Shown here piece after piece: positions 2,445-24,797 of a stretch of 64,000 nucleotides of DNA. Positions within the stretch are counted from its first letter, which is position 1. Each line of letters begins with the position of its first letter. The notes under the pieces were generated by a model. That model worked only from the letters and a program-made list of their open reading frames with translations. It was not told where the DNA came from and ran no database searches. The stretch is from an uncultured Micavibrio sp. Lineage in GTDB: Bacteria; Pseudomonadota; Alphaproteobacteria; Micavibrionales; UBA2020. The stretch covers positions 143,565 through 207,564 of the forward strand of contig CAZKBS010000001.1 of the NCBI GenBank assembly GCA_964551435.1, read 5' to 3'. The position numbers and the translations under genes were made by a program.

Positions 2445-5279
2445 ATGGCGTATGATAACGAAGACAACTACCACGGCATGCGATTTTTGCTGGATGCCCA
2501 GAACTCCCGCCAGTTTGGCGTGCGTTACGACCATGGCAAAGTATCGAAGCCGATCCATGTCTTCGCCGAGGACGACCGTGAAGCCGGGTTCAAGCCGAAC
2601 GAAACCGTTTTCGCCTTCGATGACGAAGCCAAAATTACCACCGACAACGGCAAGGCCCGCCTGTCGACGGTTGCCTATCAGATCATCACCAATGAATCCG
2701 CCGAGCCGAAAAAGCTGAAAGAGCTGAGCGTCGATTACGACGTCACCTTCCGCGGCGATGGCGCCGGCAACTTCAAAGTTGTCTATAAACTGTCCCCGAC
2801 ATCGCGCGATGCGCTGGCGGAGCGTGGTTTTGATGCCAGCTTCCCGCAGGAATTCAGCGAAGCCATCGACCCCCGCGGCCTGAGCCGTAACGGCATGACC
2901 AATCAGGTCGTTGTCGATCGTTCGACCCTGAGTAATCTGTCGTTCCCGCCGCAGCACACGACCAACAAGGCACATCTGGCGCGCTACGCGCTCGAAGGCA
3001 ACGATCTCGACAGCGCTGTTATGCCGCGCCCCGAAGATATCGTCAGCCAGCGCCCGCAGGCAAAGGACAATGCACCGCAGAAGCCCGTGCAGCGGCCGAC
3101 CACGGCGCCCGCCAACCAGAACCCAGGCGAACCCGCGCCGCAAAAACCTGCGCCGCAGTTCAACCGCCAGACCACGTTCCGTCCGCCGGTTGTGGACAAG
3201 CCGAAAATCTCTGACAGCGCGATCGAAGCTGTTATCAAGATGTTCTGCGAAGACCTCAGCGAAAAGGCCGCCCGCGGCCAGCTGGACCCTGTTGTCGGCC
3301 GTAACAACGAAACTCAGGCTGCCATCAAGGTCATGTCCCAGCGCAAACAGTCCAGCCTGTGCTTCACGGGTGAGGCGGGCGTTGGTAAAACCGCGATGTT
3401 CTCCGCTGTTGCACAATATATCCACGATGGCGATCAAGTTCCCGACTCCATGCGCGGTGCACGCGTTCTGCAGCTCGACCTGCAGGCGATGAACGCCGGC
3501 GCGAAATACCGCGGTGAATTCGAAGCCAAGCTGAAACCGCTGATCGAAGGTCTGAAAGAGCGTCAGGGCTACCTGAACGGCCGCAAGGTCATTCTGGCCA
3601 TCGACGAAATCCACTCGCAGCTGACGTCCGGTAAAGCCGAAGGCGGCACCGACGCCGGTAACATGATGAAACCCTTCCTGACATCCAAGGGTATCTCCGT
3701 CATGGGCGCGACCACGGATGACGAATACAAAAAACACATCGAGAAAGACCCCGCGCTGGCCCGCCGCTTCGAAGCGATGCGCCTCGAGGAGCCGAAAAAA
3801 GACGACACCCTGCACATCGTGCAGAAACTGTGGCCGCTGATCCGCGACCACCACGGTATCGCCAAAGACCCCAGCGCCGAGGAATTCCTGTATCTGGTCA
3901 ACATGACCAACCGCTACGCGCCGAACGAAAGCCAGCCGTCCAAGGCCGAAAAAGCCCTCGACATGGCCGCCGCTTCTGCCAAATTCCGCGGTTCGGATAC
4001 CATCGAGCGCGAGGACTTCCTCTCCGCGATCTCGAAAATGTCCAAACTGTCGGCTGACTTCCTGGGCCAGAACGACCGCGACCGTTTCCTGAAACTGGAA
4101 GCATCGCTGAACGAACAGGTTCTGGGCCAGCCGGGCATCAGCAAGGTCGCAAGCGGCCTGATCGGCTCGCGCGTCGGCCTGAACGACCCGAACAAGCCCA
4201 TGGGCTGCTTCGTTCTGCAAGGTCCGAGCGGCACGGGTAAAACCGAGCTTTGCAAAGCCCTCGCCCGTACGCTGTTCGGCGACGAGAAGGCGCTGATCAA
4301 ACTCGACATGTCCGAGTACATGGAAAAGCACAGCGTCGCACGCCTGATCGGTGCCCCTCCGGGTTATGTCGGTTTCGACAGCGCACAACCTGCCCTGACC
4401 GAAGAAATCCGCCAGCGCCCCTATTCCATCCTGCTTTTGGATGAAATCGAAAAAGCGCACCCCGACGTGTTCAACGTCCTGCTGCCCGTACTCAACGACG
4501 GCGAGATGAAGGACAACCAGGGCAAAACCGTCAAGTTCAACAACGTCATCGTTGTTATGACGACCAACCTCGGTGCGAAAGAAGCGATGGCAGCCCTGCA
4601 AGGTGGCGGCAGCAGCAACGGTCTGGCACTCGGTGGCAGCGCTCTTGAAAAAACGCCGCAGGAACAGCAGGAAATCCTCGCCAAAATCTACGAACGCGAG
4701 CGTAAATCCTTCTTCCGTCCCGAGATGGTCAACCGTATCGAGATGCTGGGTGGTTTCATCACCTTCATCCCGCTGGCGCAGGAAGTCATCACCAAGCTGG
4801 TCAACCGCGAGCTGAAAAACGTCAACAGCCGTCTGTCCGACCCGACCGGTGCAAACTTCGGCGGCGTGACGCTGGAAGTTTCCGCAGACGTCAAACAGCA
4901 ACTGGCGCAGGAAGGCTACAAGCCGGATATGGGCGCGCGTCCGCTGGAAAAAGTGGTCCGCGAGAAACTCGGCAACCCGCTGGCTTTCTGGCTGCTGGAA
5001 AACGAAGACAAGCTGAAGACCTTCGCTGCGGCGAATGGCGGCGCGAAAATCTACATCGAAAAAATCGGCGCGGATTTCAACCCCGTCATCAAAGCACCGA
5101 AAGAAGAACTGGTGGCCCTGCCTGCTGCAAAAGCAGACAAGAAAACCGCCGCGGACTTCAACGCTTCGGCAGATGCCGCTGCGCCGGCCAAAAAGCCCCG
5201 CAAACCCGCCAACGACGAAGCTGGCAAAACGCCGGCCCCGCGCAAGCGCAAGTCGGGTGGCAATGATTTCAACGCCTGA
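2445..5279 (+). CDS. ClpA/ClpB-family double-AAA+ ATPase with novel N-terminal domain, no long M-domain, and basic C-terminal tail
   Basis: Strong RBS AAGGAGG. NBD1 has Walker A GEAGVGKT, Walker B ILAIDEIH and pore loop GAKYRGEFE. NBD2 has Walker A GPSGTGKT, Walker B ILLLDEIEKA, pore loop GAPPGYVGF and sensor-2 GARPL. The first 270 aa or so have no Clp-N motifs and end in a Pro/Gln-rich linker. Tail is KKPRKPANDEAGKTPAPRKRKSGGNDFNA. Confidence 0.9.
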   Translation: MAYDNEDNYHGMRFLLDAQNSRQFGVRYDHGKVSKPIHVFAEDDREAGFKPNETVFAFDDEAKITTDNGKARLSTVAYQIITNESAEPKKLKELSVDYDVTFRGDGAGNFKVVYKLSPTSRDALAERGFDASFPQEFSEAIDPRGLSRNGMTNQVVVDRSTLSNLSFPPQHTTNKAHLARYALEGNDLDSAVMPRPEDIVSQRPQAKDNAPQKPVQRPTTAPANQNPGEPAPQKPAPQFNRQTTFRPPVVDKPKISDSAIEAVIKMFCEDLSEKAARGQLDPVVGRNNETQAAIKVMSQRKQSSLCFTGEAGVGKTAMFSAVAQYIHDGDQVPDSMRGARVLQLDLQAMNAGAKYRGEFEAKLKPLIEGLKERQGYLNGRKVILAIDEIHSQLTSGKAEGGTDAGNMMKPFLTSKGISVMGATTDDEYKKHIEKDPALARRFEAMRLEEPKKDDTLHIVQKLWPLIRDHHGIAKDPSAEEFLYLVNMTNRYAPNESQPSKAEKALDMAAASAKFRGSDTIEREDFLSAISKMSKLSADFLGQNDRDRFLKLEASLNEQVLGQPGISKVASGLIGSRVGLNDPNKPMGCFVLQGPSGTGKTELCKALARTLFGDEKALIKLDMSEYMEKHSVARLIGAPPGYVGFDSAQPALTEEIRQRPYSILLLDEIEKAHPDVFNVLLPVLNDGEMKDNQGKTVKFNNVIVVMTTNLGAKEAMAALQGGGSSNGLALGGSALEKTPQEQQEILAKIYERERKSFFRPEMVNRIEMLGGFITFIPLAQEVITKLVNRELKNVNSRLSDPTGANFGGVTLEVSADVKQQLAQEGYKPDMGARPLEKVVREKLGNPLAFWLLENEDKLKTFAAANGGAKIYIEKIGADFNPVIKAPKEELVALPAAKADKKTAADFNASADAAAPAKKPRKPANDEAGKTPAPRKRKSGGNDFNA

Positions 5280-5313
5280 TCATTAAGGCTTCGGCCTTGA
5301 TGTGAAACTGACA

Positions 5314-23267: not shown

Positions 23268-24797
23268 TCAGGGGTTCGGGCCGCCGCGTTTGGGCGGTTT
23301 CGCTTTGGCGTCGGCGGCGTTGTCTTCCGCGCCGCCCGCGGCATCATTCGCGGGCGGTTTCAGCGTACCGCCTGGCAGGGACGGTTTGGCGAAATCACGC
23401 GCGGAGGGCAGGCGCAACACTTTGACGCGCGGCTTGTCGAGCGTGCCGGTATCCTCTTTTTCTTTTGCCGCTGCATCGCGCACACGCATCAGTTCGGGAT
23501 TCAGCGGCAGCTGTTTTTGATAACGGCCACCGGCCACAATCAAACGCTGCACCACGGGGCTTTCGCGGTCGCCTTTTTCGGCAAGGCGGTCAAGCACCGT
23601 CCAGCCGCGTTCGTCGGTGAGGTCGGGATTGGCGCCGCGGTCGAGCAAAAGGTCGAGCACGTCCATATCTTTTTTCTCGATCGCGATATGCAGCGGCGCG
23701 TGACCTTTGGCGTCGCGGATATCCGGGTTCGCGTTGCGGTCGAGCAGAGTCTTGAGCATATCCACCCGGCCTGTCGCGGCCGCGAAATGCAGCAGGGTGC
23801 GACCCGCGCGGTCCTGCGCATCCGGATCGGCGCCGCGGATGAGCATGATGCGCACCACGCTATCAAGGCTGTTCGACTGCATGACCCAGTGGCGGCCATG
23901 CACGCAGTCGCACAGTTCGCCCAGAGGCGTGACGCCGGCGTTGTTTTTTTCCTGCAAAAGTTCCGGCGCGCGGTCGAGCACGCGCGCGAGCATGAACACG
24001 CTTTGTGTCCGCGCCAGCACATGCAGAACGTTATTGCCGTTATTGTCTTTTTGCATCAGATCGGCGCGGTCGATCACCGACGCGAAGGCGTCGTGCTTGT
24101 CAAGGCGCGCGGCGAGATGCAGCAGGTTTTCACCCTTGTCGTTGACAGCGCAGACATCGGCGGCAGCGCTGAGCATCTGCTGTACGACCTGCGGATATTT
24201 CTGCAGCTTTTCATCGTCGATCATATACATGAAGGGCGATTTGCCCGCATCATCGCGGATATTCGGATCCGCGTTGTTGCGCAGCAGACGCTCGACCATC
24301 AGCGGTTTGTCGAGGAAATGATGCAGCGGCGTCTTGCCGTCATCATCGCGGATATTGGGATTGGCCCCGTAGCTGACGAAAACGTCAATCAACGTCGGGC
24401 GGGCAGTGCCCAGTTTATGCAGCGGCGTCTTACCGTCCTCGTCGCGCAGGTTGGGGTCTGCCCCGAGCTTCAGCAGCATCTGCACGAAACTGTCCTGATT
24501 TTGCGCGGCGGCATGGTGCAGCGGCGTGCGGCCCATGGCGTCTTTGAGATTGATATCCGCCCCCGCCTGCACCAGCGCGAGCGCGATGCCATGACGGTCT
24601 TTATCGAGGGCGAGATGCAGCGGCGGATAAATCATCGCGCCGCGGAAATTGACATCGGCACCCGCCTTGATGAGGGCAACCACCCCCGCCAGATCACCGC
24701 GCATGACGGCGCGCTGAAGACGCGTGAATCCGTTTTCGTCGACCTTGTTGGGGTCTCCCTTGAAAAAACCGGCCATCGCGTTAAAAAAGTTTTTCAA
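23268..24797 (-). CDS. Large ankyrin-repeat protein (about 12 repeats) with basic tail
   Basis: Many canonical repeats (G.TPLH.A...G......LL..GA(D/N)P(N/D)). Tail is KPPANDAAGGAEDNAADAKAKPPKRGGPNP. Confidence 0.9.
   Translation of the reverse strand: MKNFFNAMAGFFKGDPNKVDENGFTRLQRAVMRGDLAGVVALIKAGADVNFRGAMIYPPLHLALDKDRHGIALALVQAGADINLKDAMGRTPLHHAAAQNQDSFVQMLLKLGADPNLRDEDGKTPLHKLGTARPTLIDVFVSYGANPNIRDDDGKTPLHHFLDKPLMVERLLRNNADPNIRDDAGKSPFMYMIDDEKLQKYPQVVQQMLSAAADVCAVNDKGENLLHLAARLDKHDAFASVIDRADLMQKDNNGNNVLHVLARTQSVFMLARVLDRAPELLQEKNNAGVTPLGELCDCVHGRHWVMQSNSLDSVVRIMLIRGADPDAQDRAGRTLLHFAAATGRVDMLKTLLDRNANPDIRDAKGHAPLHIAIEKKDMDVLDLLLDRGANPDLTDERGWTVLDRLAEKGDRESPVVQRLIVAGGRYQKQLPLNPELMRVRDAAAKEKEDTGTLDKPRVKVLRLPSARDFAKPSLPGGTLKPPANDAAGGAEDNAADAKAKPPKRGGPNP

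Follow-up and report, generated by a model that had tools for sequence, protein, structure and literature searches.

Why should proteins of unrelated folds, encoded close to one another in the genome of an uncultured Micavibrio sp., end in much the same short peptide? The question was raised by a sequence-only reading of the 64,000-nucleotide stretch of DNA analysed here (the window). The C-terminal tails that it quoted match their translations exactly (7/7); four of its coordinate ranges were a few residues off the quoted strings, the correct ones being 13716..13778 (not ..13793) for Inc-like protein 1, 14599..14637 (not ..14664) for Inc-like protein 2, 5469..5546 (not ..5543) for the small membrane protein and 40314..40346 (not from 40308) for RRRTKGGPASG. 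The tail is a disordered, Pro/Ala/Lys-rich extension of roughly 20-30 residues after the last folded element. A [PA]-A-N-[DSE] box often lies 15-30 residues before the C-terminus, and the terminus itself is a basic Gly/Pro patch without acidic residues, which reads [RK][RK]x1-3GG[PFH]x[PL] in this genus and KPPxP, GPRPGY or GGFxL in more distant relatives. None of the tailed proteins has a Sec signal peptide, and nothing hydrophobic follows the motif. The ends are located as follows.

1..40, minus strand: initial stretch of codons of an ankyrin gene that crosses the left window edge (L087 9154..9777), whose product ends in EVMKPAAVIARRPQKPRGGGGFTL
5202..5276, plus strand: tail of the ClpB-like AAA+ protein, KPANDEAGKTPAPRKRKSGGNDFNA, with PAND box and basic Gly-Gly end (gene 2445..5279)
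5469..5546, minus strand: tail of the small single-pass membrane protein, PPADAAADKNPPQKPGRKNSGPGGPR (gene 5466..5930)
6043..6075, minus strand: end of a 619-aa protein, PKGPRGPKPGY (gene 6040..7899)
8551..8583, minus strand: looser basic Pro end of a 109-aa protein, SPPPPKPPGHR (gene 8548..8877)
12113..12163, minus strand: small ankyrin protein, second tail class, RDIVPLKVVQLHPRRPK (gene 12110..12742)
12745..12783, minus strand: small ankyrin protein, second tail class, ALLSPLAVRKRAP (gene 12742..13236)
13716..13778, minus strand: tail of membrane-hairpin (Inc-like) protein 1, TPANSASEKNAPRKNAGPKNG (gene 13713..14486)
14599..14637, minus strand: tail of membrane-hairpin protein 2, AAPARKNIAGPKS (gene 14596..15588)
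20870..20935, minus strand: tail of the HAD hydrolase, after the last helix of the fold, GRAPANDAKPAAPQRKSGGPRP (gene 20867..21631)
22393..22446, plus strand: ankyrin protein, second tail class, SLCVMKPAAVRSRISPRR (gene 21772..22449)
23271..23360, minus strand: tail of a 509-aa ankyrin protein, KPPANDAAGGAEDNAADAKAKPPKRGGPNP (gene 23268..24797)
29450..29476, plus strand: end of a 551-aa ankyrin-N protein (family 15), PVSGRGFGF (gene 27824..29479)
30269..30304, plus strand: end of a 185-aa ankyrin protein, GVKPCGPPAPRH (gene 29750..30307)
34142..34171, plus strand: end of a DUF6782 metallopeptidase-like protein (family 4), ARTAPGPKAP (gene 32567..34174)
40314..40346, plus strand: end of an 83-aa protein, RRRTKGGPASG (gene 40098..40349)
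59405..59434, minus strand: end of a 195-aa protein of no known identity, QRPDNPRGGL (gene 59402..59989)
61449..61478, minus strand: end of a 346-aa ankyrin protein (Ank matches), PKPARKPPRP (gene 61446..62486)

Conserved in the island, too, are genes for a trypsin-like protease and for an FHA membrane protein; a tail-less acidic protein of 165 aa, likewise conserved, is encoded among the tailed ones.

That the motif exceeds chance is borne out by shuffled sequences and by outgroup loci of similar G+C. When the C-terminal 40 aa of each of the 62 proteins complete in the window were compared with 3000 composition-preserving shuffles, PAN[DS] was found in 4/62 tails (0.13 on average in shuffles), the basic Gly/Pro end [RK]x0-3G[GP]x0-4$ in 12/62 (1.7) and the bipartite pattern in 4/62 (0.02), counts that none of the 3000 shuffles reached; within protein bodies PAN[DS] occurs once per about 15.8 kaa. 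Among proteins of 28 outgroup loci, of similar G+C and processed with the identical gene caller (a codon model made for this analysis), 1.1% have a basic P/G-rich end and 0.8% an AND box, as against 19-20% and 6-8%, respectively, in the window and clade loci, frequencies that refer to these loci, picked around one island. The loose regular expression also matches three probably irrelevant proteins (OsmC, nitroreductase and EVE), and housekeeping proteins (acs, gpsA, tsaD, hemC, aminotransferase, amidase) are, as had been claimed, without such ends. The PAND box is written in different codons in its four copies, again as the sequence-only reading had it. A profile built from the HAD tails alone retrieves other families only at E 0.2-0.4, which is not significant, so that the similarity across families is that of a short motif and not of a domain; all of the 18 top matches of a tail profile, training sequences included, end within 5 residues of the C-terminus. 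The notion of a modular C-terminal element, maintained at the peptide level on proteins of unrelated folds, is supported.

The tail is inherited, with varying length and sequence among orthologues, within at least 8-10 unrelated families of a MAG clade labelled Micavibrio, Bdellovibrionales or Alphaproteobacteria. Tailed members make up 20/29 of the HAD family, 17/23 of the small membrane proteins (family 2; basic P/G end, with an AND box in 12/23), 10/13 of the 619-aa family (family 7; basic P/G end), 8/13 of the 109-aa family (family 9), 4/4 and 3/3 of the families of membrane-hairpin proteins 1 and 2 (families 25 and 31), and 5/5 and 9/22 for DUF6782; the tail is never present in FHA (0/16), family 3 (0/22), family 8 (0/13), LexA-like (0/10) and LemA (0/5) proteins. 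The 509-aa ankyrin protein has orthologues with the ends KQGGPNP, KQGGGHRP or RDGGPRR, the looser end of the 185-aa ankyrin protein is kept in its orthologues, and relatives of the DUF6782 protein have HPANDD plus a basic P/G end. Those of the small membrane protein carry AAN[DE]N right after the membrane helix and KPPxP at the end, and membrane-hairpin protein 2 has a PAAND box some 40 residues upstream of its tail. The ClpB-like protein matches Pfam AAA_2 and ClpB_D2-small.

For the HAD protein, the one protein modelled with AlphaFold2, pLDDT is >90 for residues 1-232 and 52-57 for tail residues 233-254, which have no secondary structure. RKxGG-type ends persist in its orthologues to about 45% identity as the spacer drifts, and distant orthologues end in GPRPGY, like the 619-aa protein. 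Homologues beyond the clade do lack the tail, outgroup HADs stopping at 230-240 aa; the description as an ordinary HAD enzyme with an appended tail had to be abandoned, the tailed HAD being a conserved clade family down to about 40% identity.

The search for secretion machinery, which the sequence-only reading had called for, yielded Dot/Icm-type (type IVB) genes on both flanks of the window and no virB/virD4 genes in roughly 100 kb. The flanking loci, L087 and L088, match the window with 100% identity across overlaps of 11,307 and 12,555 bp. On the left, 1.3-9.7 kb from the window, a DsbG/SLT/DotD/DotC/DotB/IcmT cluster encodes DotD (PF16816 1.6e-37; NF033882 1.9e-33), DotC (PF16932 7.6e-70), DotB (TIGR02524 6.9e-114 versus 4.7e-70 for plasmid TraJ) and IcmT (NF038220 3.7e-25). 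On the right, 2.5-14 kb beyond position 64000, lie two DotI-family genes (1.2e-50 and 1.2e-34), DotH (PF12293), DotG (1.1e-33), DotF (4e-8), DotE/IcmC, DotN (1.8e-28) and DotO (26% identity to IncI1 TraU over 91%, E about 1e-85), in the Legionella order icmL-K-E-G-C-D-J-B. The machine subunits have ordinary C-terminal ends; products of the ankyrin genes adjoining the left cluster end in KPIEFxxRKKxGGxFxL, VRKGKGPGGFRL or PQKPRGGGGFTL, and those adjoining the right cluster have basic F/L-Gly/Pro ends, e.g. RFRLKPKGPNM. The same Dot/Icm synteny, flanked on either side by ankyrin and DUF6782 genes, recurs in distant clade genomes, and T4BSS-linked genes share contigs with the tailed HAD (sizes 351081, 1221186, 2203028, 294502, 140162 and 62554). 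A search of the roughly 100 kb gave neither the coupling ATPase DotL nor DotM, DotA or IcmS/W, so that the presumed tail receptor is not among the genes seen. The published genome of Micavibrio aeruginosavorus ARL-13 was reported to be without a type IV system (PMC3189940).

Since the tail is found on many unrelated accessory proteins and Dot/Icm genes lie on both sides of them, it is most likely the address label of an injector. Judging from sequence, a somewhat better than even case can be made for a clade-specific, positively charged C-terminal recruitment (translocation) signal for a Dot/Icm-like type IVB system. The tail, exposed in the cytoplasm, would be bound by the coupling complex (DotL/DotM/DotN) or by an adaptor, and the complex would feed the tailed protein into the channel. 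In membrane-hairpin and single-pass proteins it would follow the last membrane helix, on what basic juxtamembrane residues suggest to be the cytoplasmic side; transmembrane T4SS effectors have been described with a C-terminal signal in just this place. For a signal that is basic and not Glu-rich, an acidic receptor surface would be expected, in contrast to that of Legionella DotM. The many ankyrin domains may point to a eukaryotic target cell. The ClpB-like ATPase and the small membrane proteins make odd 'effectors', and in them the tail may serve docking instead of export. T4SS signals are generally accepted to be C-terminal, unstructured and acid-depleted, those of Legionella Dot/Icm being Glu-rich or hydrophobic-ended and not positively charged (PMC12981334); no E-block enrichment was found in the tails.

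The tail might instead act after delivery, in the target cell, as a short linear motif, be it a nuclear-localisation-like patch, a polybasic end that binds membranes or a peptide that docks on one host protein, the true secretion signal being elsewhere or less defined. Polybasic, acid-free ends can bind acidic lipids, and PAPRKRK and KPPKRGG presumably resemble classical monopartite nuclear-localisation patches (P-x-[KR]-[KR]); in addition, the PAND box has no counterpart among known T4SS signals (PMC12981334). This reading is nevertheless unlikely, for the tail is also borne by bacterial inner-membrane-type single-pass proteins and an AAA+ unfoldase, it is common to proteins expected in different host compartments, and its strict placement at the extreme C-terminus is typical of secretion signals and not of localisation motifs. 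Less likely still is a docking peptide serving the bacterial side, not a secretion channel: its partner would be a polar organising hub (Micavibrio-type predators attach by one pole), a dedicated chaperone or unfoldase (for example the ClpB-like protein), or a protease to which it is a tag for degradation or processing. In its favour, the tailed ClpB-like ATPase and small membrane proteins resemble machinery and not cargo, the protease and the FHA protein are conserved in the island, and the tail-less acidic protein sits among tailed genes; however, no such hub or receptor was identified, and ankyrin, HAD, peptidase and membrane-hairpin proteins near Dot/Icm are most simply explained as cargo.

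The sequence-only reading itself, which is supported as to a modular tail and a dedicated T4SS, here encoded next to the genes, had proposed a positively charged signal recognised by VirD4, the coupling protein of type IVA (VirB/VirD4) systems. Type IVA signals are indeed described as net positive, Arg/Lys-rich, unstructured ends (PMC12981334), and the small ankyrin proteins end in R-x-R-like strings, e.g. VRSRISPRR and LRLRPRN; yet virB/virD4 genes are absent (Pfam) from the window, its 10-kb flanks and 33 clade loci, a near-complete Dot/Icm core set being present instead, which makes this version quite improbable. Slighter still is the chance, largely refuted, that the tails are functionless low-complexity extensions of G+C-rich sequence past ancestral stop codons. 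With a window G+C of about 60% and tails that are Pro/Ala/Gly-rich and variable between orthologues, such an origin might be thought of, but neither composition-matched shuffles nor outgroups of similar G+C reproduce the motif, lysine is frequent in the tails and acidic residues are missing from their ends, orthologues down to about 45% identity still have the end motif in spite of a drifting spacer, and a given family has either retained the tail or never carries it.

Read as a recruitment signal for the adjacent type IVB system, the tail invites comparison with several known systems. With the C-terminal sorting signals that sortase-like enzymes read (LPXTG, PEP-CTERM, GlyGly-CTERM/rhombosortase) it shares a short conserved C-terminal motif on unrelated proteins of one lineage; it also has a Gly-Gly element, and the window contains a rhomboid gene (49638..50414). 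In such sorting signals, however, a membrane helix and then a basic cluster come after the motif, whereas here nothing hydrophobic follows and the proteins are without Sec signal peptides. The DotO-like ATPase is closest in sequence to its counterparts in the IncI1 (R64-type) and alphaproteobacterial megaplasmid MPF-I conjugation systems (42-44% identity to plasmid genes of Methylorubrum, Bosea and Rhizobium, 26% to IncI1 TraU), and the traH-I-J-K order of these systems equals that of DotD-C-B-IcmT. Unlike them, the present system lies in the chromosome with housekeeping genes interspersed, a relaxase was not encountered, Dot/Icm models give DotB, DotG and DotF better scores than plasmid Tra models do, and the neighbours are ankyrin and other eukaryote-type genes, not plasmid functions.

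Along the same line, the VirB/VirD4 signals (Agrobacterium VirE2/VirF, Bartonella Bep tails, Anaplasma/Ehrlichia effectors) have in common with the tails a net positive, Arg/Lys-rich, unstructured C-terminus, the small ankyrin proteins even matching their R-x-R-like strings; but type IVA signals include neither the Gly-Gly-Pro core nor the PAND box, and here the neighbouring system is of type IVB, VirB/VirD4 genes did not turn up in the roughly 100 kb, and a BID-like domain is lacking. As to Legionella Dot/Icm, the host here is a Micavibrio-related alphaproteobacterium and not one of the Legionellales, DotL, DotM and IcmS/W were not located in roughly 100 kb, and the end is strongly basic and Gly/Pro-rich, without a Glu-rich E-block, whereas theirs is small-polar with a hydrophobic residue at -3 and lacks the recurring PAND box and the sharp RKxGGP consensus. 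Shared with Legionella, Coxiella and Rickettsiella are homologous DotB, C, D, E, F, G, H, I, N, O and IcmT, the icmL-K-E-G-C-D-J-B order, a disordered signal in the last 20-35 residues that is depleted of Asp and Glu at the very end, its presence on soluble and membrane-spanning substrates, and large ankyrin repertoires beside the system. To sum up, the putative signal would, rather probably, serve machinery of type IVB and carry a charge pattern like that of type IVA signals, together with a consensus of unusual sharpness.

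Seventeen genes of the window encode proteins with the C-terminal tail; six of these tails are bipartite, joining a PAND box to a basic Gly/Pro end box, eight carry the end box only, and three belong to a second class. The sequence-only reading had described a shared tail on proteins of unrelated folds, and this observation is confirmed, with caveats on the regular expression, the profile HMM and the choice of loci: every quoted tail translates as written, four of the coordinate ranges being a few codons off. Gene calling (66 genes, 62 of them complete and of at least 70 aa, at a G+C of about 60%) used a self-trained codon model, since calling by GC3 only does not separate sense from antisense frames. 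Ankyrin-repeat proteins are unusually dense (at least 10 by Pfam), and Pfam further identifies a ClpB-like AAA+ protein, a HAD hydrolase, two DUF6782 metallopeptidase-like proteins, an M48 peptidase, a trypsin-like protease and an FHA membrane protein. Interspersed are the housekeeping genes acs, gpsA, tsaD, hemC and hemY, an aminotransferase, an amidase and a hemD/Mic60-like fusion, the latter being typical of Alphaproteobacteria; as had been claimed, the housekeeping proteins lack such ends. The fusion, an 818-aa protein (44835..47291, forward strand), unites a HemD (uroporphyrinogen-III synthase) domain with a helix-turn-helix segment and, at the C-terminus, a mitofilin/Mic60-like domain, and adjoins hemC and a HemY-like gene.

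The last 35 residues of 64 proteins contain PAN[DS] four times, versus once in the other 15.8 kaa. When the last 40 residues of each window protein were shuffled 3000 times, the expected number of tails with PAN[DS] was 0.13 (4 observed), with a basic-x-G[GP] end 1.7 (12 observed), and with the bipartite pattern 0.02 (4 observed), none of the shuffles equalling any of the three observed counts; the motif thus exceeds chance. The same gene caller was applied to 28 loci of other phyla with similar G+C: a basic, acid-free, Pro/Gly-rich end is found in 1.1% of their 372 proteins versus 19-20% in the window and the clade loci (loci of Micavibrio-related genomes carrying the tailed HAD or Dot/Icm genes), and the AND box in 0.8% versus 6-8%, all compared loci surrounding one genomic island. 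The codons of the PAND box are unlike among copies, also as claimed. The loosest regular expression matches three further, probably irrelevant ends, those of OsmC, nitroreductase and EVE proteins. The similarity across families is that of a short motif, and profile HMMs do not reach significance across families: a model built from HAD tails alone gives other families only E 0.2-0.4, and a mixed-family model assigns non-HAD tails 10-23 bits, which would not suffice in a search of 5.8 billion proteins.

The HAD hydrolase illustrates the anatomy of the tail. Its residues 1-232 form a confident HAD fold in the AlphaFold2 model (pLDDT >90), followed by a tail of 22 residues lacking secondary structure (pLDDT 52-57). 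HAD homologues of Gemmatimonadota, Chloroflexia and Rhodobacterales end just past the fold, at 230-240 aa, and the extension is present in nearly all clade orthologues down to about 40% identity. Along this series the end box drifts from RKSGGPRP to RKxGGF[RH]P, RKRAAGGH[RK]P[SF] and R[SN]RGPRPGY, the last type also being the ending of an unrelated 619-aa protein of the window. The identical HAD protein is found on 20 public contigs, and the homologue loci stem from uncultured genomes titled Micavibrio sp., Bdellovibrionales, Rhodospirillaceae or Alphaproteobacteria bacterium; Micavibrio is still placed under Bdellovibrionales in the NCBI taxonomy. The window is therefore assigned to a Micavibrio-related clade of Alphaproteobacteria.

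When 594 proteins of the window and of 33 clade loci were clustered on their bodies only, the tail proved to run in families:

Occurrence of the tail in body-defined families (members with tail/members)
HAD family: 20/29
Small single-pass membrane proteins: 17/23
619-aa family: 10/13
Family 13 (about 300 aa, no window member): 8/10
Membrane-hairpin family 1: 4/4
Membrane-hairpin family 2: 3/3
DUF6782 families: 5/5 and 9/22
FHA protein: 0/16
Acidic 165-aa family: 0/22
LexA-like repressor: 0/10
LemA: 0/5

The [PA]AN[DSE] box occurs in the tails of at least seven unrelated families. Among clade proteins only, after removal of the window and of all families bearing the box in the window, it is still 6-fold tail-enriched (16 tail versus 13 body matches), adding three further families. 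Family-weighted profiles display a low-hydrophobicity stretch of about 20 residues in which Lys/Arg peak at -5 to -8 and Pro/Gly at -1 to -4; among the final 12 residues of tailed proteins, two to four are Lys/Arg and Asp/Glu are usually absent, the ClpB-like tail having one Asp. Ends such as PLRLRGG recall the ubiquitin C-terminus, a likeness taken to be coincidental.

Small ankyrin proteins bear a second motif, [DE]-I-x-V-hydrophobic-[KR]-P-[LIA]-x-[VLF]-[RK]-x-[RK], at the following sites:

12113..12163, window
12745..12783, window
22393..22446, window
53-2191, L090 (a clade locus with a left-type Dot/Icm cluster)

In several proteins it is joined to an end of the first type, as in ...DIQTLKPIEFAPRKKTGGGFNL and ...EVMKPAAVIARRPQKPRGGGGFTL, and sometimes to an RKxGGxFxL end; both types thus represent variants of a single tail system, in which the second motif may bind an adaptor other than that of the PAND box.

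The dedicated secretion machinery that an export signal had been taken to call for is present, as Dot/Icm-type genes lie on both sides of the window; Pfam finds no secretion system inside it. Ten kb on each side were read from public contigs, whose overlaps with the window (11.3 and 12.6 kb) match it at 100% identity. The two clusters are:

Left cluster, 1.3-9.7 kb before position 1: DsbG/TrbB-like protein, lytic transglycosylase, DotD, DotC, DotB, IcmT, TcpQ/PilL-like protein, four paralogous proteins without family
Right cluster, 2.5-14 kb after position 64000: two DotI-family genes, DotH, DotG, DotF, IcmC/DotE, a 135-aa protein, DotN/IcmJ, a 1000-aa DotO

The outer-membrane core (DotC, PF16932 7.6e-70; DotD, PF16816 1.6e-37 and NF033882 1.9e-33; DotH, PF12293 in precomputed annotation) is present and accompanied by DotG (NF033900 1.1e-33) and DotF (NF038218 4e-8, a weak match). 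Both ATPases, DotB and the VirB4-like DotO, are present. DotB matches TIGR02524 at 6.9e-114 with 380 bits, under the curated 463, and scores higher with the Dot/Icm model than with plasmid TraJ; DotO was identified via its tblastn match to IncI1 TraU (26% identity over 91%, E about 1e-85 to 1e-93). DotN/IcmJ, a member of the coupling complex, matches NF038221 at 1.8e-28 (99.5 bits, cut-off 100). For DotL and DotM, tblastn gave no match to IncI1 TrbC, TrbA or TraY or to a Bosea plasmid coupling protein in any of the loci examined, which cover about 100 kb of this genome, and DotA and IcmS/W were not found within the same length of genome read. The genes are ordered icmL-icmK-icmE-icmG-icmC-icmD-icmJ-icmB (clade loci L093, L094 and L095) and dotD-dotC-dotB (left-type loci L087, L089 and L090); the former is the Legionella order, and the arrangement was also compared with that of an R64-type plasmid, an IncI-gamma/K1 plasmid serving as stand-in for R64 (AP005147). 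Both the synteny and the ankyrin and DUF6782 neighbours of the two clusters are kept in clade members down to 45-65% identity. The clusters share contigs with the tailed HAD gene, and the tail is found on ankyrin genes directly beside them and not on machine subunits.

Right after IcmT and the TcpQ-like gene, in the left flank outside the window, stand the four tandem paralogues of about 430-485 aa (L089 10001-15438; L090 10001-15598), with an N-terminal membrane helix, invariant cysteines and long predicted helices. The family has no Pfam or NCBIfam match and homologues in this clade only (61 matches); one member matches an alpha-xenorhabdolysin-type pore-forming subunit faintly (E 0.009), and the AlphaFold2 model is poor (mean pLDDT 63, pTM 0.44). 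A role as translocon or surface component of the Dot/Icm-like system is conceivable for these proteins. As to DotO, its nearest plasmid relatives, at 42-44% identity, are poorly annotated genes of alphaproteobacterial megaplasmids (Methylorubrum extorquens AM1, Bosea sp. ANAM02 pANAM02 and Rhizobium). This points to I-type mating-pair systems as being widespread in Alphaproteobacteria and under-annotated there, and to such systems as the likely source of this chromosomal one.

Three further elements of the region deserve mention:

8053..10753: four small genes (122, 109, 198 and 115 aa) without family matches, divergent from a LexA/S24-like repressor
22493..22990, reverse strand: acidic 165-aa protein (net charge -7) without tail or family match
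25186..27641, forward strand: trypsin-like protease gene overlapping the start of the FHA-domain membrane protein gene

The four-gene module keeps its synteny in at least 10 clade loci, beside the 619-aa tailed protein, and may control the island as a regulatory or phage-derived unit. The acidic family has a member in 22 clade loci, where it is flanked by the 509-aa ankyrin gene and a small ankyrin gene; that it supplies an adaptor or chaperone for basic tails is pure speculation. The protease/FHA pair, whose FHA also matches the YscD cytoplasmic-domain model, is kept in 16 clade loci within the effector island, both proteins lacking the tail.

The simplest account, and probably the right one, is that the tail is a signal recruiting cargo to the adjacent type IVB system. 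Motif, conservation, disorder and genomic association are observed; beyond them, I infer that the tail would dock on the coupling complex, upon which the protein would be exported. In membrane proteins the tail follows the last membrane helix, on the putatively cytoplasmic side, as the basic juxtamembrane residues suggest. For some carriers, such as the ClpB-like unfoldase and the small membrane proteins, it may be a docking peptide at the same receptor and not an export label. The ClpB-like double AAA+ protein (2445..5279, forward strand) has a 280-residue N-terminal domain without assignment, a Pro/Gln-rich linker and a PAND/RKRKSGG tail, with no orthologue among the other clade loci examined; this leaves two readings, an odd effector or an unfoldase that docks at the secretion system. 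More tentatively, the clade might have a chromosomal Dot/Icm-like injector and address its cargo by a sequence-defined bipartite signal of independent origin, PAND box plus RK-x-GG-P end; its charge being opposite to that of the Legionella E-block, the coupling complex would therefore present a re-engineered, acidic receptor.

Other functions have been weighed against recruitment to the type IVB system. A role on the host side, as a localisation patch or in lipid binding, is unlikely, albeit it could coexist with recruitment, and a tag for a hub, chaperone or protease on the bacterial side is more doubtful still. The association with VirB/VirD4-type substrates made in the sequence-only reading fits the positive charge of the tails, which is type IVA-like; its machinery, however, is absent from all sequence read, Pfam detecting no VirB/VirD4 genes in window, flanks or clade loci and Dot/Icm genes being seen instead, so that a VirB/VirD4 version of the signal is very improbable. 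Least credible of all is a functionless extension driven by G+C content, which shuffles, outgroups and conservation contradict. A sortase, exosortase or rhombosortase signal was rejected, no hydrophobic stretch following the motif (hydrophobic fraction 0.08-0.13 in the last 12 residues), as was type I (RTX-type) secretion, there being no HemolysinCabind, ABC-exporter or HlyD matches among window proteins. The rhomboid-family protease encoded at 49638..50414 (reverse strand) was discarded as processing enzyme of the Gly-Gly tails because these lack the membrane helix required by rhombosortase-type signals.

The Dot/Icm signals known so far are ill-defined, and their prediction relies on machine learning. 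If a Dot/Icm-like system uses a short explicit consensus, this would offer a simple rule to list effectors across an uncultured clade, and a clean peptide for finding the receptor, be it DotL, DotM, DotN or an adaptor; if the more tentative reading of an independently evolved bipartite signal is true, its sharp consensus would let near-complete effector catalogues be read straight from uncultured genomes. Effector-translocating type IVB systems are ascribed to Legionellales and a few related gammaproteobacteria (reviews), and no type III or IV system was reported for the genome of M. aeruginosavorus ARL-13 (PMC3189940). Strain EPB is likewise reported to be devoid of type IV systems. A full-text search of part of the literature found nothing linking Micavibrio or Micavibrionales to type IVB or Dot/Icm genes. 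On the same tentative reading, type IVB effector systems with large ankyrin arsenals would not be limited to Legionellales-type gammaproteobacteria. That relatives of a bacterial predator have a chromosomal type IVB system together with dozens of ankyrin genes makes one ask what these bacteria attack or live in.

Accepted type IV signals are C-terminal, disordered, acid-depleted ends, and in membrane-spanning effectors the signal is the cytoplasmic C-terminal tail; the Legionella type IVB classes comprise the E-block, read by a basic face of DotM, the hydrophobic -3 residue and FxxxLxxxK (PMC12981334). The tails described here resemble the Legionella signal in occupying the last 20-35 residues, in being unstructured and in their acid-depleted extreme end, yet on the whole they do not reproduce these classes. 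In particular, the Glu-rich E-block at about -10 to -17 has no counterpart, Asp+Glu amounting to 0.12-0.15 at -13 to -28, no different from tail-less proteins; a further trait of Legionella signals is seen in GGFxL, GFGF and NDFNA ends and not in the GGPRP, GGPNP and GPKNG ends of the window. The net positive C-terminus is instead that of type IVA (VirB/VirD4) substrates. Because the charge is type IVA-like and the Legionella classes are not reproduced, the system is provisionally filed as type IVB machinery whose signal is basic and unusually explicit, a combination that would blur the textbook split between positive type IVA tails and acidic or hydrophobic type IVB tails.
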